Shown here: piece by piece, positions 3,546 through 39,724 of the stretch
Position numbering within the stretch: position 1 is the first letter of the stretch
How the letters are laid out: every line of letters starts with the position of its first letter
From: a candidate division WOR-3 bacterium
GTDB taxonomy: Bacteria; Hydrothermota; Tepidihabitantia; SM23-42
Direction of reading: 5' to 3'
Assembly: GCA_027026255.1 (NCBI GenBank)
Contig: JALVOT010000014.1
Coordinates: 23,986-87,985 of the forward strand
Length of the DNA stretch: 64,000 nt
Program-made: the position numbers and the translations under genes
Notes under the pieces: model-generated
Database searches by the model: none
What the model saw: the letters and a program-made list of their open reading frames with translations, nothing else
What the model was told of the DNA's origin: nothing

Positions 3546-3562
3546 CCTTTAGTAACATAGTA

Positions 3563-4024: not shown

Positions 4025-4112
4025 TAATGCTCCTATTTATAAAAGTGTGAATTGACCCATTTTTTAGCAAAATAATATTCATCTTAGAGCGAATTTTCAC
4101 ATATTTCCTATC

Positions 4113-4225: not shown

Positions 4226-4247
4226 TTTGATTCTTACGCATTTTTAT

Positions 4248-4532
4248 TTAGAATAAGAATATGTTGTAAATGTCTGTATGAATGCGGTTTAGCAATGTCC
4301 TTATGGATAAAACAATGCCTGTCAATCCAAATATGAAGTTTATTAATCTAACATAAGATAATTTTCTTTTGTCTTTATATGTCAGACCATACATTACTGC
4401 AATTATACTGAAAGGAATGCCTAACACAGGCTGGGTAGATAAAATCAAACCCATAATTACCCATACAAATTTATCAAAAATATTACTACTTGAATAATTA
4501 GTATCCATATTTTTTTTCTTGTTGATGAACAT
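4248..4532 (-). CDS. Small membrane protein (2-3 TM), function unknown
   Basis: 94 aa hydrophobic ORF between the two immunity-candidate paralogues. Confidence 0.4.
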   Translation of the reverse strand: MFINKKKNMDTNYSSSNIFDKFVWVIMGLILSTQPVLGIPFSIIAVMYGLTYKDKRKLSYVRLINFIFGLTGIVLSIRTLLNRIHTDIYNIFLF

Positions 4533-4555
4533 TATATATTAAATACATAATTATC

Positions 4556-5787: not shown

Positions 5788-5802
5788 TTTTCCTTCTTGA
5801 TA

Positions 5803-5830
5803 ATTATAGTAAAATCAAGTGATTTTTCAA
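5803..5830 (-). promoter_or_regulatory. Internal promoter of the orphan toxin cassette (TTGAAA, 16 bp, TATAAT, 15-nt leader with AAGGA)
   Basis: Read on minus strand: -35 at 5825-5830, -10 at 5803-5808, ATG at 5785-5787. Confidence 0.5.
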
Positions 5831-5955
5831 GAAGATATTTCATCGCCCGGTATTTTATTTTTCTGGAAAAGTTGTGTATTAACAGAGGAAAATAATTGTG
5901 GAATCGAAACAAGTTGAAGGAAAATAAATATAAGTTAATTATTCCACAGCGTTTG

Positions 5956-6747: not shown

Positions 6748-6951
6748 ATTTATCTTATGCTGGCAATAATTGTACAGCGATATTTCGATTGAAGAAAATA
6801 ATAATCAATGGTCTTGATACGATATTCGATTTGAGGTTATCTGTAATGAATAATCGAACTTATTCAGAAATTTATAAAAATGCAAACTGTATAGGTGGTA
6901 TCGCATCTGTAGTCCTGGTTAAATATCTATATCTGATGTGATATATAGCCA

Positions 6952-9900
6952 TTAGCTTAAGCCCCTGGGAATAGGAAGAATTTCTTTTTCCTCTTTTTTG
7001 GTGGGTTCAGACGGTTTTCGCCACCAGGCTGGTGGAAACATATTTTTATAGTAATCATCGTTCCACATTTCATCGAGTTCCTCGATTGGTAATTTATTAT
7101 AACCACGAGGAGGATAAACGATATTCTTCGGATGATGTATATTCTCAAAAGCAGGCTGCCTTTCTTTATGTTTTTCTGGTTGAGGTAGATTAGGTTCGTT
7201 CGGATAGAAAGATGATTTGGGGATAATCTGTTCTAATGATTCGATGAAGTTCTCGCCAAGAATTATGTATCCAGACAATTGGAGTATAATACCTACGTAA
7301 TGTGTTATGGGGTGAGGGTACGCTTCAAGCATTACTCCCAAATTAATTAATTCTATTTCAAGCTGTGAGCCTTTCACAGTTTCTAACGCTTGACTGCCCA
7401 AATTTTTTGTTGTATTATAGAACACTTTTATTTTTGTTTCAATATTTGCTTCAGAATTTTCAAAAAATAGATTCAACCCTGATTCATGGCCAATGAATTC
7501 GTAATAATCGTTTGGCGACATAAAGAGAGGTACCTGCAGCCCCAATGGGTCGGTAAACCTTAAGGGGTTATTGACACAATAGGCATAACGGTTCTGGGAT
7601 TGAGGAACTTCAATATAACCACCAAAGGGATCAAGAGACAAAAACCTTCCGATCTCTGCCTCATAATACCGCTGGCAGAAGTAGTTAAGATTGTTTTCAT
7701 CAAATTCCTTGCCGGTGAAGGTATGGGTGTTATCAGCAGTACCTGATTTTGTTATTTCACCGAATGGATAATAATATGCAGTCCAGACCACTGAACCCGA
7801 TTCATCGGTCATCTTCCTTGATGAACCTAAAACATCACAATGATAAAAGGTGGTATCTGCACCATCAATCCTTGCAATATGTAATCCACCGGCATAGACA
7901 TACCTTGCCAGTATTGAACCATCCGGGGAATATTCAATAAGCGGATTTATACCGTCATAAACATAGTAAATCGTATAGTCAGTTGTTGTATTAATTCCGG
8001 ATGTAGTTATCTCACCATAGCCGTTGATTTCACCACCGAATGTTTTATTGGTGCCGGGAAAGACATCAACTGCATTTGAACCACCCTGATGCAGGGTATC
8101 AACATTCACAGGTAAACCAGGGTCAAAGGTTGAGATGGTCCACCGCAGGGGACCATAATGATTTAATAACTGTTTGGAGATCTTTATCTGGATACTGCCA
8201 TCAGGACCAATAATCCGTTCCACTGTCATACCAGAGGGCATTACAGTCTTTGTGCCGTCTGCCCTGTAAAAACCGTATTCTCCATCGTCTATATATAGAC
8301 AGTATTCCCAGGCAGCATTTTTTGGCACCTTTGTCTTCATATCTTCTGGTAAGGTAATTCTACCCGAATTTGGAATCGTGTCAAGGTCTAAGGTGATAAA
8401 GAGCTTTAATCGGCTGACCTGGGCAAAGATATATCGGTTGACGACGGTAAAGATATAATACCGGGCGGTATTTTTTATGTAGACTTTTTCAATATCAAGT
8501 CCTTTATTATATACTGTATCCGGACCGGATGATTTGAATCCTAAGTCGTTTGCTGCATCAGTGAATAGGGTTCTTGAAGTTATCCCTGTGCCGGGAGTTA
8601 ATTTATGATAATGTTTTTTGACCCTGAGGCCGGAACTGTTATAGGCATAATCAATGGTTTCAGGACCTTTTTTATAATAGATTAGCCGATTATTCCAGTC
8701 ATAGGCAAATGAATCGACCAAACTGCCTGAGGAATTGTTGCGTTTAATAATATTACCATTGTCATCATAATAATACTCATAATCTCTGTGGTCGGTTTTT
8801 AGCCGGTTGGTATTTGACCAGTATGAATATGAGTTACCATTTTTTGCAGTGCGGTTTCCTGTTTTGTCATAGCTGAATGATTGGATACCTGCTAATTGGG
8901 TGACCGCGGTGAGTCGATTCAGGGCATCATAGGTAAAGGTCTGGGTGTATCTGCTGTTAAGATAGTCGGTAATTGAATGGATATTGCTGTTATCTTCGTA
9001 AGAATAACCGAGTTTTAGAATATCACCGGTTTTATAAGCCCTCACCAGGATTGGACGAAGCCGGGAATCATAGGTTATTGTATCCACTACCCCGTTATCA
9101 TAACTTAGCTTTACAATCTGACCTGCAGGATTATATTTAAAGGTTGTTAAAAGACCGGGGACGGATTTTATCTGGCCGAGTCTATTGTATCGGTATTTTA
9201 TTTTGTCGTCTGTTGATAAATAGATCAGGATGCACTGGTTCGCATAATTAAAATTATAGGTAAACGATTTTTCACCACTCAGACCTACAATATTAACCCT
9301 TTTGAGTCCTAATCTGCCTCGATCATCATAGTAGTATGTTATTGAATCTATTCCGCAGGTAACAACTTTACTCAGTCGACCCGTAGGATTAGCCAGTTCA
9401 TAAGGAGTTGGTCCTCCGGTCGTAATATCATAGGTCAGTCTGACTTTATCTGCCCAGGTGGAGCCATTATCGGTTGAAAGTTCTATTTTGGTCAAACGGT
9501 TGATATTATCATAGGTATACCGAACCCATCCATTCGGGTCTTTTTTTAGCGTTAAATTTCCCAGGTCATTATATTCATCATAGAGCACATCAACTGGGTT
9601 ACCATTGTAATAATATGAAGATGTTGCATCCGGACCATCCACACCACGCAATCTGCCAAGGGTATCATAATAGTATTTTGTCACCCTCCCTTCGGCATCG
9701 GTCACTTTTGTCAATCTGCCGAGGGTATCATATTGATAACAGGTGCGGTTATTATTGGCATCAATGATTGTATCAATTGCGCCGTAGGCATTATAAATAT
9801 GGATGGTTTTATTACCCTTTTCATCAATGATGGTGTCGGTATTGGCATAGTATTTTACCTGAGAATATTTACCATCAGGATGGGTTATTTTTATAATGCG

Positions 9901-10257
9901 TCCCAGAGCATCATACTCATAGGTGGTAATTTGAGACCAGGAAGGTGAACTATAACTGTATGATGTACCGAAGATTGTATAGGGGTTACAAACTGAATCT
10001 TTTTTACTGTTTTTATTATAAGAAATATTCCGGATAATCGTCCGGGCGTTATCAAAATCAAATTTTTTGGTTTGAATCAGTTTACCAAATCCATCATAGA
10101 AGTTTTTACTTACTATCCAGTATGTAGCCCCAGCTTCGTCGATGAAGTCTATTTTTATCGAATCAATAACTGCAGATGGAATTTCAAAGTCTTTATAGGT
10201 AATTCTCCGGGATGCTGAAGATTCATTGGGCTGGAAGGTTTTTATTAATCGGCTCAT
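6952..10257 (-). CDS. Rhs/YD-repeat protein with C-terminal polymorphic toxin domain of unrecognised family
   Basis: 1101 aa with many YD repeats (YDALGRII, YDTLGRLT, YDALNRLT). Rhs core end FYHCDVLGSSRKM...YAYCVNNPLRFTDPLGLQ, then about 210 aa unique C-terminus ending in a Pro/Lys-rich tail. No signal peptide or PAAR-like N-terminus visible. Confidence 0.85.
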   Translation of the reverse strand: MSRLIKTFQPNESSASRRITYKDFEIPSAVIDSIKIDFIDEAGATYWIVSKNFYDGFGKLIQTKKFDFDNARTIIRNISYNKNSKKDSVCNPYTIFGTSYSYSSPSWSQITTYEYDALGRIIKITHPDGKYSQVKYYANTDTIIDEKGNKTIHIYNAYGAIDTIIDANNNRTCYQYDTLGRLTKVTDAEGRVTKYYYDTLGRLRGVDGPDATSSYYYNGNPVDVLYDEYNDLGNLTLKKDPNGWVRYTYDNINRLTKIELSTDNGSTWADKVRLTYDITTGGPTPYELANPTGRLSKVVTCGIDSITYYYDDRGRLGLKRVNIVGLSGEKSFTYNFNYANQCILIYLSTDDKIKYRYNRLGQIKSVPGLLTTFKYNPAGQIVKLSYDNGVVDTITYDSRLRPILVRAYKTGDILKLGYSYEDNSNIHSITDYLNSRYTQTFTYDALNRLTAVTQLAGIQSFSYDKTGNRTAKNGNSYSYWSNTNRLKTDHRDYEYYYDDNGNIIKRNNSSGSLVDSFAYDWNNRLIYYKKGPETIDYAYNSSGLRVKKHYHKLTPGTGITSRTLFTDAANDLGFKSSGPDTVYNKGLDIEKVYIKNTARYYIFTVVNRYIFAQVSRLKLFITLDLDTIPNSGRITLPEDMKTKVPKNAAWEYCLYIDDGEYGFYRADGTKTVMPSGMTVERIIGPDGSIQIKISKQLLNHYGPLRWTISTFDPGLPVNVDTLHQGGSNAVDVFPGTNKTFGGEINGYGEITTSGINTTTDYTIYYVYDGINPLIEYSPDGSILARYVYAGGLHIARIDGADTTFYHCDVLGSSRKMTDESGSVVWTAYYYPFGEITKSGTADNTHTFTGKEFDENNLNYFCQRYYEAEIGRFLSLDPFGGYIEVPQSQNRYAYCVNNPLRFTDPLGLQVPLFMSPNDYYEFIGHESGLNLFFENSEANIETKIKVFYNTTKNLGSQALETVKGSQLEIELINLGVMLEAYPHPITHYVGIILQLSGYIILGENFIESLEQIIPKSSFYPNEPNLPQPEKHKERQPAFENIHHPKNIVYPPRGYNKLPIEELDEMWNDDYYKNMFPPAWWRKPSEPTKKEEKEILPIPRGLS
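7547..7712 (-). repeat. Rhs core 3'-end segment repeated at 5612-5762 (master copy)
   Basis: See 5612-5762. Confidence 0.8.
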
Positions 10258-10260
10258 AAT

Positions 10261-10288
10261 AGATTACCCGGAACTTTAAGGATGTAAA
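10261..10288 (-). promoter_or_regulatory. Possible promoter of the Rhs gene (TTTACA, 16 bp, TAATCT, 3 nt before ATG)
   Basis: Correct spacing but a weaker -10 than the other promoters in this window. Confidence 0.3.
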
Positions 10289-10464
10289 TGTGTGGGATGT
10301 ACTGAGGGCGATTGGCATTCAAAGTGCAGTAAATATCGTTGTTGATAAGAATTTTGAGGGTAGTATTACAGTTTATCTGGGAAAGGTTACTTCAGAACAG
10401 GGATTGAAGAAGCTGCTTGAGGCAAACGGTTTTCTCCGAAGAAAAAAGAGAATTATTTTTTTGT
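10263..10464 (+). pseudogene. Gene fragment with secretin-N/STN-like motif; no canonical start, runs into stops
   Basis: Frame reads ..NFKDVNVWDVLRAIGIQSAVNIVVDKNFEGSITVYLGKVTSEQGLKKLLEANGFLRRKKRIIFL*, resembling the N-terminal domain motif of secretins and TonB-dependent receptors (DVLRAL...NIVVD...G.VT..L......AL..LL.ANGL). Only about 60 codons. Confidence 0.3.
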
Positions 10465-10652
10465 AAAGAAAAGATTAAAAGAACGATTAAAAAAGTTTAC
10501 AGCCGCTGATGGTAAACTCGGTTTGAATGTGAAGAATGCATCGAGAGATGAAAATTATTTCCGGTATCGGATCGGGGTTTGCATCTGAACTTTCCATCCT
10601 CCAGATTTTGTTTTTTTAACTCAGGATAAAAATTCACTGCTCCACTTATTGC

Positions 10653-10680
10653 TTGATTTAAAGAAAATTATATGTATAAT
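10653..10680 (+). promoter_or_regulatory. sigma70-type promoter (TTGATT, 16 bp, TATAAT) with 21-nt leader and AAGGAGG for the Yip1 gene
   Basis: Boxes and SD read directly upstream of ATG 10702. Confidence 0.5.
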
Positions 10681-10701
10681 AAAATACTAAGGAGGTAGAG
10701 T

Positions 10702-11259
10702 ATGTTAGAAAAGATTAAAGCAATACTATTTCAACCCAAAGAGACCTGGCCCAAGATTAAGGCCGATGGTGAGAATTTCGGTGAGGTCCTAACCAGGTAT
10801 GCGGTGCCTCTGGCAGCAATCCCTGCTTTTTTTGGTCTACTCGGTCATTCAATATTCTTCCGGATATTCTTCGGTTTTTCATTAATCTGGGCGATTGTCT
10901 ATTATATACTGATACTTATTGGACTCTATGTTGAGGGTATTGTGATTAACGCCCTTGCTCCTTCATTCGGTTCAAGACAGGATTCAACTGATGCATTCAA
11001 ACTTGCGGTCTATGCCTATACCCCGGTTTTTGTCGCCGGTATATTGAACATCTTCCCTATGTTGGGGATCCTGGCTTTCCTCATTTCTCTTTATGGATTG
11101 TATCTTTTATACCTGGGTCTGCCGGTTATGATGGAGACACCAAAGGAAAAGGTCATCGGTTATCTTGTGGTGACTATTATCGTTCTGATAATCATATATT
11201 TTATAATCGGCGCAATTTCCACGGCAATTCTTTCTATCTTCTGGAGGCCGCTCTTTTAA
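10702..11259 (+). CDS. Yip1-family membrane protein
   Basis: 185 aa, 5 TM, layout typical of Yip1/DUF1282 proteins; strong SD. Confidence 0.6.
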   Translation: MLEKIKAILFQPKETWPKIKADGENFGEVLTRYAVPLAAIPAFFGLLGHSIFFRIFFGFSLIWAIVYYILILIGLYVEGIVINALAPSFGSRQDSTDAFKLAVYAYTPVFVAGILNIFPMLGILAFLISLYGLYLLYLGLPVMMETPKEKVIGYLVVTIIVLIIIYFIIGAISTAILSIFWRPLF

Positions 11260-11269
11260 ATAGATAATT

Positions 11270-12208
11270 TTATTCTAATACAATTCTGGTTCCGGTCTGA
11301 CCAAGGATTGCCTGGCGTGCCTTGTCAAGGGATGTAATAATAACTTCTTTACCACCCTTTTCTAAAAAAGATATTGCTGATTCAATCTTGGGACCCATAT
11401 TACCCGGGGGGAAATGTCCTTCCTGTAAATATCTCTTCGCCTCAGAAACAGTCAGATTACGCAGCATTTTCTGGTCTGGTTTATTATAGTTCAGGTAAAT
11501 ATATTCAACATTGGTCAGGATTAAAAGGGTTTGAGCCTGAATATCAAAAGCAAGCACTGCCGAGGCACGGTCCTTATCAATTACTGCATCAACTCCTTCA
11601 TATGTTCCATCATTTTCTATATATACCGGGATACCACCACCACCGGCGGCGATAACAATAGTTCCTTCATCAACCAGTTCTCGAATGATACGTCGATTTA
11701 CAATCTTTATGGGTCGGGGTGAGGGCACGACCCGACGATAGCCTTTTCCTGAATCATCTTTTATCACCCAGTTGAATACCTTGGCAAGTTTTTCTGCCTG
11801 GTTTTTTGTATAGAATGGGCCAATAAATTTTGTTGGATTAATAATTGAAGGGTCGTCAGGGTCAACAATCACCTGAGTGACGATTGTAATTACATCCCTT
11901 TTAATACCCATCTGCATTAGTTTATTCTGAAGGCTCTGTTCAATCATATACCCCATACCGCCTTCAGTATCAGCAACAATCACACCCAGGGGCAGAACAG
12001 GAATGTCATGGGCGGTTCTTTCCACGCGCAAAAGGGCATTGCCCACCTGCGGTCCATTACCATGGGTAACGGCGAGGTTATAGCCTTCCTGGATTAATTC
12101 AACAATGCCCATCAATGCCTTTCTTGTATTGGCGAATTGTTCATGAATATTTTCTTTGCCGGTCTGGGCGATGGCATTTCCGCCCAGGGCAACGACTGCC
12201 TTCTTCAT
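11270..12208 (-). CDS. arcC: Carbamate kinase
   Basis: 312 aa; MKKAVVALGGNAI...VTHGNGPQVG...IAAGGGGIPV motifs of the carbamate kinase family. Confidence 0.85.
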   Translation of the reverse strand: MKKAVVALGGNAIAQTGKENIHEQFANTRKALMGIVELIQEGYNLAVTHGNGPQVGNALLRVERTAHDIPVLPLGVIVADTEGGMGYMIEQSLQNKLMQMGIKRDVITIVTQVIVDPDDPSIINPTKFIGPFYTKNQAEKLAKVFNWVIKDDSGKGYRRVVPSPRPIKIVNRRIIRELVDEGTIVIAAGGGGIPVYIENDGTYEGVDAVIDKDRASAVLAFDIQAQTLLILTNVEYIYLNYNKPDQKMLRNLTVSEAKRYLQEGHFPPGNMGPKIESAISFLEKGGKEVIITSLDKARQAILGQTGTRIVLE

Positions 12209-12213
12209 TTTGA

Positions 12214-12241
12214 ATTATAAATATAAACCGATAAAAGTCAA
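12214..12241 (-). promoter_or_regulatory. Leaderless sigma70-type promoter for arcC (TTGACT, 16 bp, TATAAT, 5 nt to ATG)
   Basis: -35 at 12236-12241, -10 at 12214-12219 on the minus strand. Confidence 0.55.
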
Positions 12242-12260
12242 GATTTTTGTGCGATCGACT

Positions 12261-14018
12261 TTACATTTTACGCCGTCCCTGAAATGTAAAGTTCTCATCA
12301 AGCCATCGCTTTACGGTCCGGGCAGATTCATATTTTTTTATTGCATTGAGATAGATATAGTTTTGCTGCGTCATTTTTTTGACCACCTCAAGGTTGAATT
12401 TCACCCTTGGATCATTTATTATCGGCGGTATTCTGATTTTCAGTTTATTGAAATTAAACGGTTGATATCCTGTAGTATCCTTTTTTATTTCGTAACAGAG
12501 ACCCCGGGGAACAGCGTGGTATGGTTTCAAGACAAAGGCAATATCATAATCAGGAAACGGCACGGCTAAGAATACACCATTGTCAAGTCGGGACCTGGTC
12601 ATAGCATTTAATAGATTGATGAATTTTTTCTGAATCAAAACAGGGTCATACTGAAGTCCATATTCAAATTTTCTCAATTCAACAAGATAGTCTTCAGTCT
12701 CTTTTTTTATCTGATTATAAAACTTTGGATATTCATTCTTGAGATATTTGATATACCAGGTTCGACGCAAAAGTTCTTTATCAACAACAATGAGGTCAGG
12801 TCTTATATTTTTTACTTTTCTCAAGTACATTATCGGTGAATAAATATCCCAGTAGGTAGTGATCAGCAAGCTGTTTTCTGGTAATTGCGAAATATGAGCG
12901 GCGCCGAATTGAAGCCCGAAGTGGTTATTTCTCAGGGTGCAGGATGCATAGTTCACGATGGGAAATATCGCGGCGATAATAAAAACAATCAGGGGTTTCA
13001 GATGGCGCGATAATAATTTTAAGCCGTATGCAGAGACAATGATTAAACCGACAAATCCTGGAATGTAATAGGATTCAATATCAGGAATTGAATAATTTAT
13101 TGCATAGAAGAGATTTAAGAGGATAGTAATTATAAAGAGCCAGAACTCTTTTCTTTTTTTAATGTATAGTGTGTAAAAACCCAGAATCGGAATTGGAATC
13201 AATACAAATAAAAAACCACGGGAGATTATTTTGAGTCCATTTAAAAGATTATTCAGTATCTCTTTAACTGATAAAGAAAACATCCATACTTGATACTGTT
13301 TGCCCGTAATATGCCAGAAAAGTCTTTGAAGATTATGTGTATTACCCCAGGCGATTTCTGCCCCGGCATTGGTTCTGATTAAAAGATAGAGATAAGGGCT
13401 TATGCCGATAAAAAAGAGGATGGATCCTGAGATGATTTTTTTTAGTCCCGGTCGCCAGGTAATTATGGTGTATAATAAGACCGGTATGGAGAGGGCAAAG
13501 ATTATAATGTGGTTTGTAAAGCTCAGGCCGATTAGATACATTATTATATAAAATGTGCGGTCGGTTTTTTCCTGATTGAGGGTATAAAAAATCAAGGTTG
13601 CAAAAAGAAGGGTGAAGGAATAGACCTCATTGGTTATCGCAATGCGCCAGACAATTGGTGCAAAGGCAAATAACGAAGTGATGATTACAGGGTGGATTTG
13701 ATTTCCAAGGATTTTTTGGGAAATTTTGTAGATAAAAAAGACTGAGATGATTGAGAAGAGAGCCGAGAGGAGGTTAAGTCCAATTATCGGTTCAGGAAAA
13801 AGATGGGCGAATGGATACGAAATGATTGTATATAATGGATAGCCAGTAGGATGGGCGATACCAAGGCAGCAGCTGACTGTGGCGAGTTCTCCGGAATCAA
13901 TCGTATAAACAGTCGGGCAGAGCGAGTAAAGATATATCAGAAAGGCAGCGCAGATAAATATAATTTCCGGAAGAAAATATTTTAATTTAATGATGACCTT
14001 TGCTGGATGGGTGCAGCC
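12261..14018 (-). CDS. DUF2723-like polytopic membrane protein (glycosyltransferase-C fold-like); 5' end anomalous, no canonical start before TTG at 13595
   Basis: ORF track gives 12261-13595, but the frame stays open and coding-like up to a TAA at 14019-14021 (...KYFLPEIIFICAAFLIYLYSLCPTVYTIDSGELATVSCCLGIAHPTGYPLYTI...). This carries the DSGEL / HPTGYPLY block I recall as the conserved N-terminal region of DUF2723 proteins. Confidence 0.5.
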   Translation of the reverse strand, partial: GCTHPAKVIIKLKYFLPEIIFICAAFLIYLYSLCPTVYTIDSGELATVSCCLGIAHPTGYPLYTIISYPFAHLFPEPIIGLNLLSALFSIISVFFIYKISQKILGNQIHPVIITSLFAFAPIVWRIAITNEVYSFTLLFATLIFYTLNQEKTDRTFYIIMYLIGLSFTNHIIIFALSIPVLLYTIITWRPGLKKIISGSILFFIGISPYLYLLIRTNAGAEIAWGNTHNLQRLFWHITGKQYQVWMFSLSVKEILNNLLNGLKIISRGFLFVLIPIPILGFYTLYIKKRKEFWLFIITILLNLFYAINYSIPDIESYYIPGFVGLIIVSAYGLKLLSRHLKPLIVFIIAAIFPIVNYASCTLRNNHFGLQFGAAHISQLPENSLLITTYWDIYSPIMYLRKVKNIRPDLIVVDKELLRRTWYIKYLKNEYPKFYNQIKKETEDYLVELRKFEYGLQYDPVLIQKKFINLLNAMTRSRLDNGVFLAVPFPDYDIAFVLKPYHAVPRGLCYEIKKDTTGYQPFNFNKLKIRIPPIINDPRVKFNLEVVKKMTQQNYIYLNAIKKYESARTVKRWLDENFTFQGRRKM

Positions 14019-14309
14019 TTACTCTTTCCGGGCGAAATTCAGGCGCAGGTTTGTTAACCGTGTCTGGATATCTTTTTTCTCCGCCGTGTCGAGTTCCGGT
14101 TCAATTATCTTGAACAGGGCATCGATTGAATCGATTGCAAGTCGTGCCTGTTTCAGGTCTTTGGTATGGCTCTGGGTTTCAGGATGGGCAACAAAATCCA
14201 TATAAGCCCAGGCCTTTGCCTCAAGCGAAAGGATATTCATTATCACCACCTCTTTTACCCGGATGGGCTTATCCAGCAATTTTTCTTTTTTTTCTTTCTT
14301 TTCAGCCAT
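14019..14309 (-). CDS. Hypothetical 96-aa Lys/Glu-rich protein; same frame as the DUF2723-like ORF, separated by one TAA
   Basis: ATG at 14307-14309 sits 6 nt after a perfect TTGACA, 16 bp, TATAAT promoter. Predicted helical and soluble, no recognised motif. Confidence 0.45.
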   Translation of the reverse strand: MAEKKEKKEKLLDKPIRVKEVVIMNILSLEAKAWAYMDFVAHPETQSHTKDLKQARLAIDSIDALFKIIEPELDTAEKKDIQTRLTNLRLNFARKE

Positions 14310-14315
14310 GGATGG

Positions 14316-14343
14316 ATTATATAAATTTATAAATTTTTGTCAA
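14316..14343 (-). promoter_or_regulatory. Leaderless sigma70-type promoter (TTGACA, 16 bp, TATAAT, 6 nt to ATG)
   Basis: -35 at 14338-14343, -10 at 14316-14321 on the minus strand. Confidence 0.55.
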
Positions 14344-14510
14344 TGCCTGATGTATCTGATTCCTCTTAACTTTTTGTCCTGATTTTTTGAGAAATATGTA
14401 AGTTACAGGGCAGTTCTTCTTTCATCCTTTATCCTGAATTTCCCCCCGCCTTTGCGGTTGTCGGTGATAATTCTATCATCATTATGAGCCTGTTTTAATT
14501 ATTTATCTTA

Positions 14511-14538
14511 TTGATTTTTTTCTGATTTCTTTTATAAT
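14511..14538 (+). promoter_or_regulatory. Leaderless sigma70-type promoter (TTGATT, 16 bp, TATAAT, 5 nt to GTG 14544) for the Nudix gene
   Basis: Boxes read directly; divergent from the promoter at 14316-14343. Confidence 0.5.
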
Positions 14539-14540
14539 CT

Positions 14541-14939
14541 TTGGTGAAGCAGGCGGTCGCAGTTGTGGTCAAAAAGGACGGCAGGTTCCTTTTAATCAGA
14601 CGGGCAAAAAATGATTCAGCACAGGATTATTGGTGTCCGGTAACCGGTGCGGTGGAGCCTGGAGAAAGTCAGGAACAGGCAGTGATACGCGAGGCAAAAG
14701 AAGAAGTTGGAATTGATGTGAAACCGATAAAAAAGGTCTGGGAATGTCCGACTGAGAATGAAGCGTATATATTACACTGGTGGTATGTAAAACTTATTAA
14801 TGAAGAGATAAAACCAAATCCTTTAGAGGTGCAGGATTATTGCTGGGTCAACTATAAGGAAATGGAGCATTTGGATAAGACCTTTAGTGCGGATTTAAGA
14901 TTCTTCAGAGAGTTTGGCTCAGATTTACCCGATTCTTAA
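14541..14939 (+). CDS. NUDIX hydrolase (TTG 14541 or GTG 14544 start)
   Basis: Nudix box GAVEPGESQEQAVIREAKEEVGI matches GX5EX7REUXEEXGU. Confidence 0.75.
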   Translation: MVKQAVAVVVKKDGRFLLIRRAKNDSAQDYWCPVTGAVEPGESQEQAVIREAKEEVGIDVKPIKKVWECPTENEAYILHWWYVKLINEEIKPNPLEVQDYCWVNYKEMEHLDKTFSADLRFFREFGSDLPDS

Positions 14940-15045
14940 GTTTTATTTAGAGCCGTTAACTGTAAACTGAATTTTATCTTTATTAGCGATATCGCCGGCA
15001 AATATTTCTTCGCTGCTTAACCAATAGCAATCGCAACAGGAAAAT

Positions 15046-15567
15046 TCAATTCAGATTCATTTTCAGGATTGGAAATTCAGGATGGTCGTGCTGAATCACG
15101 AATCCATTTTTCAGATAAAATTCTACTGGTCCGGCAGGATTATCTTCACTATTCTTTCGTGCGATGACCTGAACAGCAGTTATATTCCTCTCTTCTAAAT
15201 TTTCAAGCACTGAATTGAGAAGCACGGACCCAAATCCGGTTTCTCGATTGCGTTTTTTAAAGATAAATAAACAGGCAATTATGATTACATCAGGTTCCGG
15301 GATGACTGGATAGTTAATTAAATTGGGAAAGTATCGGGGTGGGGCATAGGTGGCATAACCGATAATTTTATCATCCACAGACAAGAGCCTTCCGCAGTCT
15401 CCAAATTCATTCCTTACATTTTTGAGCCATTCTTTTTTTATAGTTAGTAGATTATTATTTTCTTTACAATTTGCAATCTCGGGATGCTGCCAGTAAACAC
15501 AATGCTTACAACTTGATGAAACCGCATCTAATGTTTTTTCGGTCAGATTCAGAATCTGAATCTTCAA
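15046..15567 (-). CDS. GNAT-family N-acetyltransferase with N-terminal Cys pair
   Basis: 173 aa; acetyl-CoA motif A RNRETGFGSVLL; translationally adjacent to the SPFH gene (15567/15568). Confidence 0.55.
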   Translation of the reverse strand: MKIQILNLTEKTLDAVSSSCKHCVYWQHPEIANCKENNNLLTIKKEWLKNVRNEFGDCGRLLSVDDKIIGYATYAPPRYFPNLINYPVIPEPDVIIIACLFIFKKRNRETGFGSVLLNSVLENLEERNITAVQVIARKNSEDNPAGPVEFYLKNGFVIQHDHPEFPILKMNLN

Positions 15568-16509
15568 CTATTTAACCTGAAGCAGAGGGATAAAGTTTTT
15601 ATCATAGGGTGAAATCACAATTGTATTATTGGGAGAGTCATAAAGTTTCTGCAGATTTTCAAGGTATTTCCAGGAGAGATATGCCCTTCCTCTTTCACCG
15701 ATTAGAGATTGGGCAATTATGCGCTGTGCCTGAGCAATACCGGATGCCTCAATCTTCTTTCTTTCAGCCTCTTTCTTCTCCTTCTGGAGGACGAACTCCA
15801 TTTTCTGGGCTTCCTGTTCCGCCTCAAGTTTTGCCTCAATTGCGCTCTTTACCTTTGCCGGAAGACTGATATTTCTTAAAAGAACCTTTTCCAGCACTAT
15901 ACCGCGGCTTTCGTAGTCTTTCTTTAATGCCCGGGTGATTTCATTTTGAACCTCTTCGCGTTTTTCCGAATAGATTTCAACCGCCATATATCTTACTGTA
16001 GTATTTCTTATCGCTGTGCGGGCTGCCGGTCTGACAATCTTGGAGACATAATCACTGCCGATTTTCTGAAAGACAATCGCTGCCTTTTCCGGCATAAGAT
16101 GGAACCAGACCGTAAGGTCCATCTTGACCTCAAGCCCATCCCGGGTTAGTGCACTTATGGCATCATCACCGTATCTTTGACCCTCTTCAGTCGCCGCCGA
16201 CATTGTATATGCCTGGGTGCGGATACTCATAATTTTGAGGTTTATGAAGGGGTTAACAACATTGAGACCTTCACGCATGGTAGAACCGGTCAGGACCCGA
16301 CCGAAGAGTATCTGGATTCCAACTGAGCCAGGCGGCACAATGCGCAGGAGAGAAGTGATTATTAAAATAACAGCCAGGGCAGTTCCACCCATTGATACAT
16401 AGGAGCGAATTTTAAGTTTGTCCTGAAGCCGAAGATCTTCAGGTCTGACCTTGTAGGTTGCACGAAAGACAATTAAAAAAACGATGATAAGAATCCCTAA
16501 GATAAACAT
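15568..16509 (-). CDS. SPFH/band-7 domain membrane protein
   Basis: 313 aa; N-terminal TM, SPFH core, C-terminal Ala/Glu/Lys-rich coiled coil. Confidence 0.8.
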   Translation of the reverse strand: MFILGILIIVFLIVFRATYKVRPEDLRLQDKLKIRSYVSMGGTALAVILIITSLLRIVPPGSVGIQILFGRVLTGSTMREGLNVVNPFINLKIMSIRTQAYTMSAATEEGQRYGDDAISALTRDGLEVKMDLTVWFHLMPEKAAIVFQKIGSDYVSKIVRPAARTAIRNTTVRYMAVEIYSEKREEVQNEITRALKKDYESRGIVLEKVLLRNISLPAKVKSAIEAKLEAEQEAQKMEFVLQKEKKEAERKKIEASGIAQAQRIIAQSLIGERGRAYLSWKYLENLQKLYDSPNNTIVISPYDKNFIPLLQVK

Positions 16510-16559
16510 ACATACCTCCTTTCATTAAGGTCCGGATTCTCCAAATCAGATATATTATT

Positions 16560-16587
16560 ATTATAACTTAAATTCCCTTAGTGTCAA
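16560..16587 (-). promoter_or_regulatory. sigma70-type promoter (TTGACA, 16 bp, TATAAT) with about 45-nt leader and AGGAGGT for SPFH-GNAT
   Basis: -35 at 16582-16587, -10 at 16560-16565 on the minus strand. Confidence 0.5.
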
Positions 16588-16646
16588 TTGGTGTGAACAC
16601 TGACTCCTCTCCACTTTTTGTCCCGGTTTTTTGTAAGTACAATATA

Positions 16647-16758
16647 GCCGAGGGGCGTCCCGCCCCGAGGCAGGAACGCCTGGCGAGCTGCCGGAGATTC
16701 TGAAACGAGTTAAGAATGATAAACCTCCAGCGGGCGGCGGGGACGCCGCCCGCGCTGG
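16647..16758. ncRNA. GC-rich hairpin island, candidate structured RNA of unassigned family
   Basis: Two near-perfect GC hairpins (ggggcg-tcc-cgcccc; ccagcgggcggcg-ggga-cgccgcccgcgctgg) flank an AT hairpin in an otherwise AT-rich 600-bp non-coding gap. No flanking T-run, so not a plain terminator. Strand not determined. Confidence 0.25.
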
Positions 16759-16954
16759 AAAAAATTGAACCGGGCGAAGATGGCAGAGAAATTTTTCAAA
16801 TAACCAATAAATAATATAAAAAAAGTAAAACGAAGTTGTTGAGTATTTTTCGTCTTAGTTTAATAATCTCAGGGAAGTTTATTCTGTCCAGAATACCGTT
16901 GTAATTAATCAAGGAGGCATAATGAAAAAAGTGGAGAGGAATCAGGTGTGAACA

Positions 16955-17022
16955 GTTATTCGTTATACGGTGTCGATGCCCGTCTGGTTTATAGGTTGTG
17001 GTTAATCGGCTAAAAACAAAAA
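16955..17022 (+). repeat. Conserved 68-bp intergenic element, copy 1
   Basis: gttattcgttatacggtgtcgatgcccgtctggtttataggttgtggttaatcggctaaaaacaaaaa; about 90% identical to 21166-21232, same orientation. Confidence 0.7.
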
Positions 17023-17113
17023 TAAAAGCCTGTTTTATTACAGCACTTCAGTCTGACCTTTTCAATCTGCCCGGCGACGAGATTTACAGGGTATAATTAA
17101 ATATTAAAGGTCG

Positions 17114-18205
17114 TCAATAGTAAAAGAAACAGCAGGCCCGGCAGACTGAGAAGAATTCTCTGTTTTTTATCCGGATGCGGAGATTTTTATTCTTTTTGTT
17201 GTTCCAGAGGTGAAGAAATTTTTCATTGATAAGACTGCCCAGAATATAGTCAGGGCAGGATTCGACTTCACCATCAGGAAGGATTGTTGCGGTATTCCAG
17301 GGTGCCCGGCACCTGCCTTTGAATACCGAATAGAAGTCGGCACCTGGTTTATAGTATTGCAAAAATTGCTGTTTACTGAATCGGGGGAAGATGTTGATTG
17401 TTATTTTTGTGTTCTTTTTTATTTTTTCAAAAACCTTCTGGATATTAGTGAAATTTTCCGGTTTCGGGGCGACACGATATGCCTCGCGCCAGTAGTTCAA
17501 TTCCCGACCCAATATATTTTTCAAAAAATGGCGGTGTTCCTCAATCGCCTCTTTATCAGCAAAAAGTGGATAGAGAAATTTCACTTCATCTATATGAAGA
17601 GAGCGGGCGATATCAACAATTTTTTGCATCGCCAAGGGGTTTTCAAAATTTATCATTGAGTGAATCTTTATTCTGGGTTTTCTTTTTTTCTTTTTTATTT
17701 CATTGATGCCATCAAGGATTTGATTAAAGGTGCCCGCAACGCCCCTGATTTTGTCGTGAATTTCTGCCGGACCATCAATAGAGATATTTATTTGATTTAC
17801 GGTTGCAGCGATAATTGAAGTAAATTTCTTAAGGTAGGTTCCATTGGTGGTGAGGACAAGGAATAGTTTATGCCTTTTGATATATTCCAGGAGTTTATCG
17901 ATATCTGGATAGAGTAATGGTTCACCACCGGAAAGATGAATCCTCGGACCAGACCCTGAAACCTGGTCGATGATCGATTTCCACTGTTCAATTTTTAATT
18001 CTTTCTTGGGGATGCGGAATTTTTCAAAACACATCTTACACCGCAGATTACATCGGTCTGTAGGGAAGATATTGATGGTCTCGGGTGGTAGTGCCTGGTA
18101 ATTTAAGAGCGGGGCAAAGGTGTGGCTGAAGACTGCACCGACCCGGCGGCGGATAATATTAAAGAGATAGGGCGATTTTTCTATTATTAAAACAGGATCA
18201 GCCAT
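17114..18205 (-). CDS. Radical SAM protein with C-terminal SPASM-like Cys cluster
   Basis: 363 aa; CNLRCKMC (CxxxCxxC) near the N-terminus, C-terminal CRAPW...CPDY...CRACC; start overlaps the queG stop. Confidence 0.7.
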   Translation of the reverse strand: MADPVLIIEKSPYLFNIIRRRVGAVFSHTFAPLLNYQALPPETINIFPTDRCNLRCKMCFEKFRIPKKELKIEQWKSIIDQVSGSGPRIHLSGGEPLLYPDIDKLLEYIKRHKLFLVLTTNGTYLKKFTSIIAATVNQINISIDGPAEIHDKIRGVAGTFNQILDGINEIKKKKRKPRIKIHSMINFENPLAMQKIVDIARSLHIDEVKFLYPLFADKEAIEEHRHFLKNILGRELNYWREAYRVAPKPENFTNIQKVFEKIKKNTKITINIFPRFSKQQFLQYYKPGADFYSVFKGRCRAPWNTATILPDGEVESCPDYILGSLINEKFLHLWNNKKNKNLRIRIKNREFFSVCRACCFFYY

Positions 18206-19223
18206 TATTCAAATTATTTATTGCCCAGTGTGCGGTTTGGGCGATGACCGGGTCAGGATGATTGGTGAATTTTTTTAATACCGGCAGAAATCTATTGTCT
18301 TTAGTATTACTGATGCCGATGAGTGCATTCCTTTTTATCGCCCGAAAATCTATCCAGGAGGCGGTAATCTGATTTTTGGGATATTTTCGGCGATATTCAT
18401 CTTCTTCTATATCGAGTATCTTTAAAAGGGGTAAACCGGGACCAACATATCCGATATCACTCTTGGGCGGCTGCGGTTTCACATCTCTATTTTTCGGACA
18501 GACATCCTGACAGGTGGTGCAGCCATAAAGGCGATTGCCCCAGACCTTTGCAATCCTGTCCGGGATCGGACCGTACCAACCAGAGAGTGCCTGGATACAC
18601 CGGGTATTGTCAATAATATATGGTTTGATTATTGCCCCGGTCGGACAGGCGGCAATACATTTATCACAATCTCCACAGTCAATCTCAAGTTCGGTATCCG
18701 GTGTTAATTTTAGATCAGTAACAATCTCTCCGAATACCATCCAGGAACCAAATTCTTTATTTATAATGATGCCATTTTTTCCATAATACCCTACACCACT
18801 TTTCCGGGCAAGGGGTTTTTCAGGGATTGAACCGTTTGAAAAGATGCGGCATTTTGCCCGGGATTCTTTTTTTATGACCTGAGCCAGCCTCTTTAATCTT
18901 TTTTTTAATTCAAGATAGTAATTGCGCCAGGTATAACGGGCGATAATTCCATAAGGGCCATTTTCATTCAAGGGAATTTCTTCGGAGGTTAGATACCCTA
19001 ATGCACCGATGATAATGGATTTTGCCCAGGGAAATCGCACCTGAATATTACAGAATCGTTCAACATCGATATTTGACAGATAATCTGAATCCAGATATAG
19101 GCCCTTCTTTTTTTGCGCCGGGATGATTTTTGCAAGGGTTGTAAATGATCTGGCTTGAGCAATGCGAATTACATCAATTCCGAATTCCCTCCCCAGTTTT
19201 TTGAGTTCCGTTTCATCAATCAC
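18198..19223 (-). CDS. queG: tRNA epoxyqueuosine(34) reductase QueG
   Basis: 341 aa; two ferredoxin-type Cys motifs (CGDCDKCIAACPTGAI; CTTCQDVCPKN) in the characteristic QueG arrangement. Confidence 0.75.
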   Translation of the reverse strand: MIDETELKKLGREFGIDVIRIAQARSFTTLAKIIPAQKKKGLYLDSDYLSNIDVERFCNIQVRFPWAKSIIIGALGYLTSEEIPLNENGPYGIIARYTWRNYYLELKKRLKRLAQVIKKESRAKCRIFSNGSIPEKPLARKSGVGYYGKNGIIINKEFGSWMVFGEIVTDLKLTPDTELEIDCGDCDKCIAACPTGAIIKPYIIDNTRCIQALSGWYGPIPDRIAKVWGNRLYGCTTCQDVCPKNRDVKPQPPKSDIGYVGPGLPLLKILDIEEDEYRRKYPKNQITASWIDFRAIKRNALIGISNTKDNRFLPVLKKFTNHPDPVIAQTAHWAINNLNNG

Positions 19224-19229
19224 TATTTT

Positions 19230-19460
19230 TTATTTCAGTAATATTCCCAGAGGGAAGAAGACAAGGTAGCCCACGATTAATAGTATCGGAGAGATTACTA
19301 TATCCCCGGCAGCGAGAAGGATAAAACCGAGGACAACAAGAATAAGTCCGATGCCGAAAAATATAGTATTCTTGCGTGAAAATTGAATCTGGACCAGGGT
19401 CTGGGCTGGTTTTTCTTTTATCTCCTTTTCCTTCTTTTTCTTTTTGGATTTTTTTGACAT
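19230..19460 (-). CDS. Small membrane protein with Lys-rich N-terminus
   Basis: 76 aa; AAGGAG SD 6 nt upstream; preferred over the overlapping alternative-frame ORF 19216-19467. Confidence 0.5.
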   Translation of the reverse strand: MSKKSKKKKKEKEIKEKPAQTLVQIQFSRKNTIFFGIGLILVVLGFILLAAGDIVISPILLIVGYLVFFPLGILLK

Positions 19461-19463
19461 CTT

Positions 19464-21113
19464 TCACTCCTTCTCTTTTTCGCCTCTTCGGGCAATCTTT
19501 TTAAAATCACCATCACTAATTTTATAGATATCAAATGCCTGATTCTTCTTGGTGATTTCATCAATCAGGCGCGGTAGAGTTGTCCGGGTATAATTCTTTA
19601 ATACCCTTAACTGATATAGACCTTCAAAGAATCTTTTTGCCAGCTCACCAATCGAACTGATATTCTGGTCTATTATATTGAGCAGTGAGGAATCAGGTTC
19701 CGCCGGGCTGGAAAATATCGCACCCTCAACATATCTTTCACCCAGTCTCGGCACCCTTTCCTTCTTGAATGTCTTTATTCCCAGCAGCTGCACACCCTCC
19801 AGACCATAATATGCAATCTGGGGTGTCGTATTTATAATCATATCTGAACTCATTGCCAAAAATATCGCCTCGGGTTCCATTTTTTTTATTGCCTTAAGTT
19901 GATATTTCAGAGTAATGGAATCAGGGGAGAAACTTATATTTGCCACCACGGTGCGATTATTCTTTATGACCTCCTGGGCGAATGTTCGGGCGATTATATT
20001 ATAATTTTCTTCATCACTGTAGAGGATTGCAAATTTGTTAATACCAAGGTTAAAGATAGCATAGTCGGCGATTATCTTTGCCTGGGTTTCAAAGTTTTCT
20101 TTTCTGGTGAAGACAAGGGGAATCTGTTCAAACCGCGCCTCTTCGGTTATGGGAAGAAAGACAGGAACGCCTTTACCATCCGCAAATCCGCAGATTCCAA
20201 ATGCCTCTCGAGAGCTTACCGGAGCAATGAGAAAATCGACCTGTAAATCATTAATCAGTTTCCGGGCGGCAATGATTGCTTCAATCGGGTCGGATTTTGT
20301 ATCAAGAAGGTGGAGAGAGTATGGAAGTATTTTATTTTTTTCAAATGATTTTATGACTTTGAATAATTCCTTCCCGATATCTTTAAATTTTCCGCTCAGA
20401 GGCAGGAGAACACCGGCCCGGCCGGTGGTTGAACCGAGGTTTATGAATCGCTGGTATTCTTCAATCTCAAATTTATAAGCCGTTTGTGGATAGCGTCGTA
20501 TGAGCAGATTAAAATCCCTTTCGGCCTCTGCTTTTTTCCCCTCGCGGGCTTCAATCTGGGCGAGGTTGTAGAGAATATGTTCATCAACCGGTTCCGCCAT
20601 AAAGATGCGGTGTAATTTTTCCAGTTGTGAAATTGATAGGTTGGGCAGGGTCTTCAGAATGTGCTCAAATGCCTTTGCCCGGGCGATTGTGTCTTTGCTG
20701 CTTGTATAGAATTTTAGAAGATAAAATGATGCCTTATAATCCCTGGCAAGATTGTAATACGACTCTCCCAGGAGTGATAAAGTATTTGTGTAGTATTTTG
20801 AATTGGGGAATTCTTCAATAAAATATTCACCGGTTGAAACCGCCTTTTCAAACCGATTTAGTTTATAATAACAGAATGCAGTGAGGTAGAGGGCAGGTTC
20901 ATAGGCATCACTCTTTTTATATTTTTTAATTATCAGCTGAAACTGTTCTAATGCCCGGGTATATGCCTTTTTGTTAAAATAATCCTGTCCCTTTTCAAAC
21001 AGCGTTATCGCCTTTTCATTGGCATACTCGGCTTCGTATTGCTTGAGTATGCTCGGTTGTATTTGGGCACAACCAAAAAAGAGTATTGGGAGAATTAGAG
21101 ATAGTTTTTTCAT
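19464..21113 (-). CDS. TPR-repeat plus LivK-type periplasmic-binding-fold protein (LpoA-like architecture)
   Basis: About 549 aa; signal peptide with lipobox-like FFGCAQ, N-terminal TPR helices, C-terminal type-1 PBP fold. ATG at 21111-21113 preferred over the TTG at 21116 given by the ORF track. Confidence 0.55.
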   Translation of the reverse strand: MKKLSLILPILFFGCAQIQPSILKQYEAEYANEKAITLFEKGQDYFNKKAYTRALEQFQLIIKKYKKSDAYEPALYLTAFCYYKLNRFEKAVSTGEYFIEEFPNSKYYTNTLSLLGESYYNLARDYKASFYLLKFYTSSKDTIARAKAFEHILKTLPNLSISQLEKLHRIFMAEPVDEHILYNLAQIEAREGKKAEAERDFNLLIRRYPQTAYKFEIEEYQRFINLGSTTGRAGVLLPLSGKFKDIGKELFKVIKSFEKNKILPYSLHLLDTKSDPIEAIIAARKLINDLQVDFLIAPVSSREAFGICGFADGKGVPVFLPITEEARFEQIPLVFTRKENFETQAKIIADYAIFNLGINKFAILYSDEENYNIIARTFAQEVIKNNRTVVANISFSPDSITLKYQLKAIKKMEPEAIFLAMSSDMIINTTPQIAYYGLEGVQLLGIKTFKKERVPRLGERYVEGAIFSSPAEPDSSLLNIIDQNISSIGELAKRFFEGLYQLRVLKNYTRTTLPRLIDEITKKNQAFDIYKISDGDFKKIARRGEKEKE

Positions 21114-21120
21114 CAATCAG

Positions 21121-21148
21121 ATATTACTCAAAAATGCGTATATGTCAA
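21121..21148 (-). promoter_or_regulatory. Leaderless sigma70-type promoter (TTGACA, 16 bp, TAATAT, 7 nt to ATG 21113) for the LpoA-like/queG/radical-SAM operon
   Basis: -35 at 21143-21148, -10 at 21121-21126 on the minus strand. Confidence 0.5.
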
Positions 21149-21165
21149 CGGGTTAGTAAAGGATC

Positions 21166-21232
21166 GTTATTCGTTGTGCGGTGTCGATGCCCGTTTAGTT
21201 ATAGGTTGTGGTTAATCGGCTGAAGACAAAAA
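21166..21232 (+). repeat. Conserved 68-bp intergenic element, copy 2
   Basis: gttattcgttgtgcggtgtcgatgcccgtttagttataggttgtggttaatcggctgaagacaaaaa; lies between two divergent promoters; closed by a downstream inverted segment (ccacgaataacg). Confidence 0.7.
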
Positions 21233-21379
21233 ACCACGAATAACGAAACCTTACGACGAGACGGGCTTCGATGTCCAACAACTTACAACGATGTTATCCG
21301 GTGCTTGAGAAATTCTATTCGCGACAGCGTATAACTTCCAGGGCGCAGCCCGCACTTTCAACCCTTCGTGAATAACTTC

Positions 21380-21407
21380 TTGATTTTTTAAGAAATCTAT
21401 TTAATAT
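21380..21407 (+). promoter_or_regulatory. Leaderless sigma70-type promoter (TTGATT, 16 bp, TAATAT, 5 nt to ATG 21413)
   Basis: Boxes read directly. Confidence 0.5.
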
Positions 21408-39309: not shown

Positions 39310-39724
39310 TAATTTTTTAGCAATTATCATATTTTATTAAAAAAATTTTCTGGACGGTGCAGCCTTTTCTCTCTGTTGAACCTGATTTATTCTGAGCAGA
39401 TTCACTTTACAGGTTATAAACATACATAGAAAATTTCCGGTTTCTGGTTTATAGATAATCGTTATTCATTCCAGGCACCGTCGCCATTTTTTTATTTTTA
39501 ATTAATATTAATTAATGATAATATTTTTGTTATGGGGTATATCTATGAAGATAATGAGATGTTTATGATGGCCGGGGATGGTGATGGTGAAGAGACAAAT
39601 CACGGTGCGGCTGATGACCGGTTCGGTCTCTTGATGGAAATGGATTACGGCGGTTGTGCTGTTATTAAACAGGGCCAATCAGACAACTCAAATTGTGCGG
39701 CAATCTGATTTTATATAATGGGCG

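Follow-up and report, generated by a model that had tools for sequence, protein, structure and literature searches.

Several kinds of short repeats have been described in the spacers that separate bacterial genes. The repetitive extragenic palindromic (REP) units are palindromes of 20-40 nt linked to the REP-associated tyrosine transposases (RAYTs). Their copies number tens to hundreds and are mostly found at the 3' end of genes, in spacers that are transcribed. The putative mobile promoters (PMPs) correspond to homologous stretches of 50-100 nt located upstream of non-homologous genes in one and the same genome (Matus-Garcia, Nijveen and van Passel, 2012; PMC3488235). Families of two members dominate among the PMPs, known from prokaryotes at large, with a mean length of 66 nt and a mean identity of 92%, and the criteria used for their recognition comprise an identity of at least 80% over at least 50 nt, non-homologous flanking coding sequences, and a position between -50 and -150 nt from the start (PMC3488235). 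The present analysis deals with a repeat of 68 bp occurring twice in a stretch of 64,000 nucleotides from an uncultured WOR-3 bacterium (contig JALVOT010000014.1), hereafter called the window, in which the two copies stand on both sides of a minus-strand operon of four genes coding for an LpoA-like protein, an open reading frame (ORF) of 83 aa, QueG and a radical-SAM/SPASM protein. The repeat is probably a member of a low-copy, lineage-specific, interspersed and mosaic repeat made of non-coding DNA.

The two copies and their wider family

The two copies occur on the same strand and are, as reported in the first-pass annotation, about 90% identical: in a pairwise alignment 61 of the 68 positions are identical (89.7%), the others consisting of six mismatches and a single indel of 1 nt, and the longest exact run reaches 23 nt. 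All six mismatches are transitions, with no transversion, and their distribution follows no pairing logic. The conserved cores of 22 and 16 nt are confined to these two copies in the window, even with three mismatches allowed, and the matches expected from shuffled sequences amount to 0.00 and 0.11, respectively. Copy 1 (E1), correctly placed 3' of the operon by the same annotation, lies 91 nt beyond the stop codon of the radical-SAM gene, in a spacer of 604 nt (16510-17113) ahead of a Band7/SPFH gene, 446 to 513 nt upstream of the start codon of the latter. Its end lacks 3 nt (no ...GAT terminus) at the junction with another short motif, X. Copy 2 covers positions -50 to -116 relative to the start codon of the LpoA-like gene, in a spacer shared by the operon and a divergently oriented gene for a lipoprotein of 386 aa. 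Its description as lying between two divergent leaderless promoters is a fair one, both promoters ending a few bases before the ATG.

The search was extended to about 88 kb of the source genome, i.e., the 64-kb window plus some 24 kb from contigs of an independent assembly, which match the window at 100% identity throughout the overlap. Additional copies were found, namely an inverted copy 3, a fourth member (E4) and a partial one (E5), bringing the family to four unit copies and one partial copy distributed over four loci (Table 1). Self-comparison of these 88 kb by BLAST (E≤1e-3) yielded no other matches between spacers than this family and one pair at two tRNA-Arg genes.

Copy 3 directly follows copy 2, with which it shares 41 of 60 aligned columns (~68%); the score of the local alignment (43 versus 17.9 ± 3.7 for shuffled sequences) was reached by none of 500 shuffles. 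Taken together, copies 2 and 3 form an imperfect palindrome of 130 nt (21163-21292). The inverted segment cgaataacg, once thought to close copy 2, is consequently not a closing stem, since it belongs to the degenerate copy 3. The same holds for the acgacgaga segment beside copy 2, which is part of the inverted copy; its supposed occurrence in both downstream flanks was not borne out, as the best local alignment between the flanks is just CGACGAGA, with 336 of 500 shuffles scoring as well. Beside copy 1, the best inverted partner is not significant (score of 18 versus 17.4 ± 3.5 in shuffles).

The longest member, E2, is built from copy 2, a spacer of 18 nt, the inverted copy 3 and a left block (AATTTCTCAAGCACCGGATAAC), and ends 2 nt from the -35 box of the promoter of the LpoA-like operon. 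The 68-bp element is thus a real repeat, although the unit of homology is larger than first delimited, mosaic in nature, and extends over approximately 21151-21314 in the spacer of copy 2. E4 is located in the spacer between an M1 peptidase gene and the tRNA-Arg(ACG) gene, upstream of the tRNA-Arg(ACG)-tadA cluster. Its ...AACGAT end lies 27 nt upstream of a promoter, TTGACG-16-TATAAT, and the right-flank sequence common to E4 and E2 extends to 15 nt from the -35 box on the E4 side. The two spacers align over their whole length with a score of 141, versus 54 ± 7 in shuffles, and their left blocks with a score of 47, versus 17 ± 3.5; the left and right blocks of E2 are also present in E4, from which the central ~56 nt are missing. 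The partial member E5 consists of the last 13 nt of the unit (AATGAATAACGAT) and a right-flank block, TATCTATAAACCAGAAACCGGAAAT, the flank block being also common to E4, and is found some 125 nt ahead of the rnfC promoter, in a spacer whose flanking genes have opposite orientations.

Four blocks can be recognized in these sequences: a left block, AATTTCTyA..CACCGGA..ATCGykGTAAGTTGTTGGACAT (representative sequence GTAAGTTGTTGGACAT); a central block, ..AGCCGATTAACCACAACCTATAA..; a right block, ..GGCATCGACACCGnnnAACGAATAACGAT (representative sequence GGCATCGACACCGNNNAACGAATAACGAT), for which the form shared by E4 and E2 reads ..GGCATCGACACCGnnnAACGAATAACGATyCTyTA..AACC; and a right-flank block, TyTCTATAAACCAGA..AACCGrAAAT. 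Depending on the member, different subsets of these blocks are present, which makes the family a mosaic one; copy 1, e.g., possesses the central and right blocks only. The identities are graded, from 90% between copies 1 and 2 to ~76% between each of them and E4 and ~68% between copies 2 and 3, and this gradient fits successive duplications. Since members also occur upstream of the tRNA-Arg/tadA genes and of rnfC, the bracketing of the four-gene operon by copies 1 and 2 is incidental.

Comparison with the sister species and with described repeats

The gene content places the organism in candidate division WOR-3. The closest public relative, WOR-3 bacterium 4484_100, is represented here by five contigs of a sister species resembling it, four of which (L001, L002, L012 and L013) carry the divergent spacer in an identical form. 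At the locus corresponding to that of E4, the only contig of the sister species stops 103 nt before the M1 peptidase gene, on its upstream side. The divergent spacer of this species displays the same gene order and both promoters but is ~140 nt shorter, and no trace of the element is found in it; E2 covers nearly all of the ~140-nt excess of the window, directly upstream of the conserved promoter. A second difference occurs at the other end of the operon, where the distance between the radical-SAM gene and the promoter of a DUF1844 gene reaches 2,768 nt in the window versus 166 nt in the sister species. The extra 2,768 nt comprise copy 1 together with Band7, GNAT and NUDIX genes; the two sequences align again precisely from the DUF1844 promoter, near 14345, onwards. 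In L003, a more distant relative, the DUF1844 gene also directly follows the radical-SAM gene. Searches with an nhmmer profile and BLAST over ~79 kb of the relatives' loci (partly redundant) detected no family member. Both copies 1 and 2 accordingly reside in DNA gained by this lineage, so that their 90% identity reflects age rather than constraint. The earlier argument that conservation of this order implies a function loses its basis here, the element being absent from both orthologous sites of the sister species and the identity being explained by a recent duplication.

Some further observations relate to the same comparison. The LpoA-like protein is 84% identical to its sister ortholog, and the radical-SAM protein only 61%, with differences scattered along its whole length (operon 17114-21116). 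The gained segment of 2.77 kb (14346-17113) contains the NUDIX (14541-14939, plus strand), GNAT (15046-15567, minus strand) and Band7/SPFH (15568-16509, minus strand) genes and looks like a recent small insertion devoid of any recognisable mobility gene. The short spacer which separates the radical-SAM and DUF1844 genes in the sister species (L012:9110-9175) consists largely of tandem repeats of the TCTGGTTT/TCTCGTTT type, the complement of which (AAACCAGA) corresponds to a motif recurring in and beside the element in the present genome.

A dispersed repeat would account for these data as follows. The members would have been copied into gene-free spacers after the split from the sister species; most of them are situated between divergent genes, in DNA that is not transcribed and shortly precedes a promoter. 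Copies 1 and 2 would represent the youngest pair, resulting from a local duplication at a distance of 4.2 kb, which would have taken place when, or after, the insertion of the NUDIX, GNAT and Band7 genes rebuilt the spacer behind the radical-SAM gene. The spread presumably relied on duplication or transposition at the DNA level, either similar to that of miniature inverted-repeat transposable elements (MITEs) and bacterial interspersed mosaic elements (BIMEs) or through a recombinational "promoter-region propagation". Most copies would then be selectively neutral passengers, their position upstream of promoters indicating where insertions are tolerated.

The rebuilt spacer itself offers another explanation for copy 1, which could be a by-product of a complex rearrangement, in the course of which template switching or patchy repair during the insertion of the NUDIX/GNAT/Band7 genes stitched together fragments of nearby spacers. 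Three locally derived pieces, i.e., motif Y, the inverted motif X and copy 1, indeed coexist in the spacer 16510-17113, which is entirely absent in the relatives. Motif X, an inverted copy of the core of motif Y (16926-16945), and copy 1 are joined base to base, and since copy 1 abuts in this way the inverted copy of a motif found upstream of a neighbouring promoter, the spacer appears as a patchwork of locally duplicated pieces. The core GAGGAGTCAG of motif Y precedes the Band7 -35 box by 12 nt, and the motif shares 85% identity with 14356-14389, at the equivalent position upstream of the DUF1844 promoter. Such a rearrangement leaves E4, E5 and the inverted copy 3, all at other loci, unexplained and is an improbable account when taken alone; as the origin of copy 1 it can be reconciled with a dispersed repeat family.

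Beside motif Y, three unrelated promoters have the decamer GAGGARTCAG at precisely 12 nt ahead of their -35 box, those of Band7 (16600-16609, minus strand), DUF1844 (14356-14365, minus strand) and the M1 peptidase gene of the sister species (L021:47-56, plus strand), and this decamer may be either an extended promoter element or a site recognized by a lineage-wide regulator.

With respect to the described kinds of repeats, the pair formed by copies 1 and 2 resembles most closely the PMPs in size and identity. The alignment (68 nt at 89.7%) falls within the limits used for these, the flanking genes (Band7 and radical SAM on one side, LpoA-like and the 386-aa lipoprotein on the other) are unrelated, and copy 2, at -50 to -116, lies inside the window of positions considered by the authors. 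However, only one of the two copies can be placed in this window of positions, because copy 1 stands 3' of an operon, with 446 nt between it and the next start codon, which makes it unsuitable for scoring as a PMP. In addition, the identity between E4 and E2 (76%) remains below the 80% cut-off, and the elements lie upstream of the core promoters instead of containing them.

Other features recall the BIMEs, REP units and REP doublets forming hairpins (REPINs), which the family resembles as a short, intergenic, non-coding and lineage-specific sequence composed of mosaic sub-blocks, occurring, as in BIMEs, as singlets and as inverted doublets with a short spacer, like copies 2 and 3. It differs from them by a unit of ~60-70 nt devoid of any internal palindrome, by a low number of members (~5 in 88 kb) located mostly upstream of promoters, and by a doublet restricted to one of the four loci and forming a modest hairpin; no RAYT is known for it, with no genome-wide search for this gene. 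Finally, E2 shows some likeness to MITEs and to elements such as Correia and the enterobacterial repetitive intergenic consensus or intergenic repeat unit (ERIC/IRU), as a non-coding imperfect palindrome of 130-165 nt with ends ATCGTT.../...AACGAT, inserted relative to the sister species, of which E4 would be an internally deleted variant. In contrast to these elements, no target-site duplication accompanies it, the arms of E2 are only ~68% alike, and E4 displays no fold-back (z = +0.2). Several defining properties of each kind being absent, the family is simply filed as a dispersed intergenic repeat.

A number of observations weigh against the spread of a neutral repeat. Inspection of the homology boundaries of E2 and E4 and of the empty site of the sister species revealed no target-site duplication; a 10-nt repeat, AAACCGAAAT, noticed in E4 is internal to the family, as it also occurs in E5. 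No clean terminal inverted repeats were found: the arms of E2 do align in inverted orientation, with both ends reading ATCGTT, and the ends of E4 are poor inverted repeats. The capacity to fold into a long hairpin is limited to E2, and neither E4 nor E1 shares it. No parent insertion sequence was identified in the ~88 kb, where no systematic search for transposases or RAYTs was made. Both long members, moreover, share one orientation and come to within a short distance of a -35 box on its upstream side, 2 nt for E2 and 15 or 27 nt for E4, and this placement could result from a function rather than from tolerance.

The restriction of the family to this genome is, for its part, only weakly established, because the probes of both large scans were located in, or included, the central block, and this block was afterwards recognized as the variable one. 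Among the GTDB genomes, the pattern GTCGATGCC-N8-20-GTGGTTAATCGG gave a single chance match, in a haloarchaeon, and in the JGI metagenomes the 18-mer GGTTGTGGTTAATCGGCT gave six matches with no similarity beyond the 18-mer itself. Three patterns searched in IMG/VR returned either nothing or chance matches of 17-21 nt, and BLAST of E2 against phages and plasmids returned no match.

Tests for RNA, recombination and regulatory functions

The intergenic position of copy 2, next to an operon containing a QueG gene, could point to a structured RNA, riboswitch or attenuator, able for example to sense a queuosine precursor. The region of copy 2, read as a minus-strand RNA, does fold better than shuffled sequences (z = -2.96). 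However, this fold corresponds to the inverted pair of copies 2 and 3, which is missing at copy 1 and E4: the E2 hairpin built from this pair (z of about -1.9 to -2.0) is the only fold that beats shuffles, copy 1 and E4 folding no better than these. No Rfam family matched the window at the gathering thresholds and, between 16400 and 21700, a search at E≤10 returned only chance matches of small nucleolar RNA or CrcZ type, none of them over the copies, in keeping with the first-pass annotation, in which no known RNA family had been recognized. RNAalifold applied to the four copies predicted, on each strand, three pairs (-1.39 and -0.49 kcal/mol) with no compensatory change, a comparison of low power since it relies on four sequences. 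Moreover, E2 and E4 are not in a leader, because they lie upstream of conserved promoters whose transcripts start at the ATG, in DNA which neither of the divergent promoters is expected to transcribe, no terminator-like site occurs in the elements, and the orthologous queG operon of the relatives is devoid of any such sequence. A riboswitch or attenuator has thus been largely refuted and is hardly credible any longer.

Coding potential was also considered for the element; a small ORF was discarded, the frames across the copies being inconsistent because of the indel. No promoter or terminator was flagged inside the units by the corresponding scans. A reading of TTAACCACA and TTATCCACC as DnaA boxes was rejected: they are not conserved among the copies, and from one end of the window to the other the cumulative GC skew shows a nearly monotonic rise.

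As direct repeats flanking a block of 4.2 kb, copies 1 and 2 could also have been sites for recombination, of the att or cassette type, making the four-gene block excisable or marking it as an insertion. The block and its order are nevertheless ancestral, since relatives both close and distant, free of the repeat, possess the LpoA-like gene, the small ORF, QueG and radical SAM side by side in an unchanged order; the repeat itself is new. The extra DNA lies outside the block, other members of the family are unpaired and occur elsewhere, and the longest exact identity is limited to the 23 nt given above. The Pfam scan of nine neighbouring proteins revealed no recombinase domain, and on inspection the ends of the copies do not fit the core sites of integron attC sequences. 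Recombination sites therefore represent a most unlikely explanation.

The elements might otherwise constitute a cis-regulatory DNA module, which would have spread to several promoters and be maintained by selection, and would serve either as an upstream activating sequence or as an array bound by a nucleoid protein or a transcription factor. Such a module would act from untranscribed DNA upstream of the -35 box. E2 and E4 are found there, both in one orientation and immediately ahead of the -35 box, E2 at the LpoA-like/QueG operon and E4 at tRNA-Arg(ACG)-tadA. Three copies are identical in the right block GGCATCGACACCG...AACGAATAAC, TAAACCAGA occurs five times in the window versus 0.68 expected, and a motif of the ATAAACCAGA type is present in the element, in the flanks of E4 and E5, and, in the sister species, beside the -35 box of the orthologous promoter. 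Nevertheless, copies 1 and 2 differ most in the stretch containing ATAAACCAGA, the spacing to the -35 box varies from 2 to ~125 nt, and no promoter lies within 60 nt of copy 1. The units are also far longer than a typical operator, and the same promoters are used in the sister species, where the element is absent. A selected module of this kind is possible but rather unlikely.

Both enzymes encoded behind E2 and E4 act on position 34 of tRNA, QueG as the tRNA epoxyqueuosine(34) reductase and TadA as the tRNA adenosine(34) deaminase. A more specific proposal may be derived from this, in which the element would be a propagated cis-regulatory cassette that co-regulates the genes for the wobble position 34 of tRNA (the queG operon and tRNA-Arg(ACG)-tadA-tRNA-Arg(UCG)) through a lineage-specific regulator bound to the right block. 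This proposal is very doubtful, and the coincidence between queG and tadA, limited to two cases, may well be due to chance.

Surrounding features and significance of the family

The features of the locus are collected in Table 1. Both promoters flanking copy 2 are kept in the sister species. Near-consensus promoters of the sigma-70 type (TTGACA/TTGATT, a spacing of 16-17 nt, and a TATAAT-like box) end 4-7 nt before the ATG of many genes, e.g., at 21121-21148, 21380-21407, ~14311-14345, ~39280-39310 and L019:15720-15760, and this short distance suggests that leaderless mRNAs are widespread in this WOR-3 lineage. The Band7 gene differs in this regard by a leader with a strong AAGGAGG ribosome-binding site.

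Table 1. Position of the family members and of the neighbouring features (coordinates of the window, unless preceded by a contig name).
Feature	Position	Strand	Basis and remarks
Copy 1 (E1)	16955..17022	+	Alignment; central and right blocks of the family only
Copy 2, 68-bp unit as first delimited	21166..21232	+	Alignment
Copy 3, inverted degenerate unit	21237..21292	-	Local alignment; nhmmer E=1.5e-12
E2, longest member (~164 nt)	21151..21314	-	Alignments with E4 and the sister spacer
E4, fourth member	L019:15821-15943, ~4.7 kb left of the window		Found in the extension of the source genome
E5, partial member	39430..39470	-	E=1.8e-6; 85.7% identical to E4 over 42 nt
Motif X, inverted copy of promoter-upstream motif AAAAAGTGGAGAGGAATCAG(+GTGTGAACA)	16926..16954	+	Alignment
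Motif Y, block of 34 nt	16600..16633	-	Alignment
Radical-SAM/SPASM protein	17114-18205	-	Domain scan
QueG	18198-19223	-	236.7 bits versus a cut-off of 200
TPR/periplasmic-binding (LpoA/BamD-like) lipoprotein	19464-21116	-	Domain scan
Promoter TTGACA-16-TAATAT of the LpoA-like/83-aa/QueG/radical-SAM operon	21121..21148	-	Promoter scan; 4 nt before the ATG
Promoter-like TTGATT-16-TAATAT of the 386-aa lipoprotein gene	21380..21407	+	Read from the sequence; 5 nt before the ATG
G+C-rich imperfect hairpin CCAGCGGGCGGCG-GGGA-CGCCGCCCGCGCTGG	16727..16758	-	Read from the sequence

The G+C-rich hairpin located downstream of copy 1 with respect to the operon, in an otherwise A+T-rich spacer, is likely to mark the end of the operon transcript on the basis of its sequence, in which case copy 1 would be included in the 3' untranslated region. 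The independent assembly of the same population displays its sole break at this hairpin, with scaffolds ending at 16815 and 16692. A chimeric assembly as the source of copy 1 was rejected, because the gap coincides with the hairpin and not with the repeat, the independent assembly being 100% identical through copy 1 to 16815 and resuming at 16692. One contig from Logan terminates within copy 1, at 16996.

Next to E4, the cluster of tRNA-Arg(ACG), tadA and tRNA-Arg(UCG) occupies L019:16005-16640, ~4.9-5.5 kb left of the start of the window; tadA (172 bits versus a cut-off of 150) stands directly behind the gene of the tRNA that its product edits. A scan of the window for tRNA and transfer-messenger RNA genes found none. 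Repeats of another type exist among the small ORFs downstream of a large RHS-repeat protein gene (window 4100-7712), where 5612-5762 and 7547-7712 are ~80% identical, including an exact match of 41 nt, and 4100-4249 matches 5712-5860. From its layout, this region looks like an array of orphan toxin-tip/immunity cassettes.

Should the family indeed correspond to a dispersed intergenic repeat, it would be an ordinary small element, that is, an ordinary feature in an unusual organism, and would call for some caution in the reading of metagenome-assembled genomes, in which a high identity between two spacers can denote a recent duplication instead of a constraint. It would also serve as a marker of the recent local remodelling, by a three-gene insertion of 2.77 kb and another of ~140 nt, of the genome of an uncultured WOR-3 lineage. 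To our knowledge, almost nothing is known about regulation in this candidate phylum. If the element were rather a portable upstream regulatory module, it would provide an example of the rewiring of promoter contexts in a candidate phylum with leaderless transcripts.

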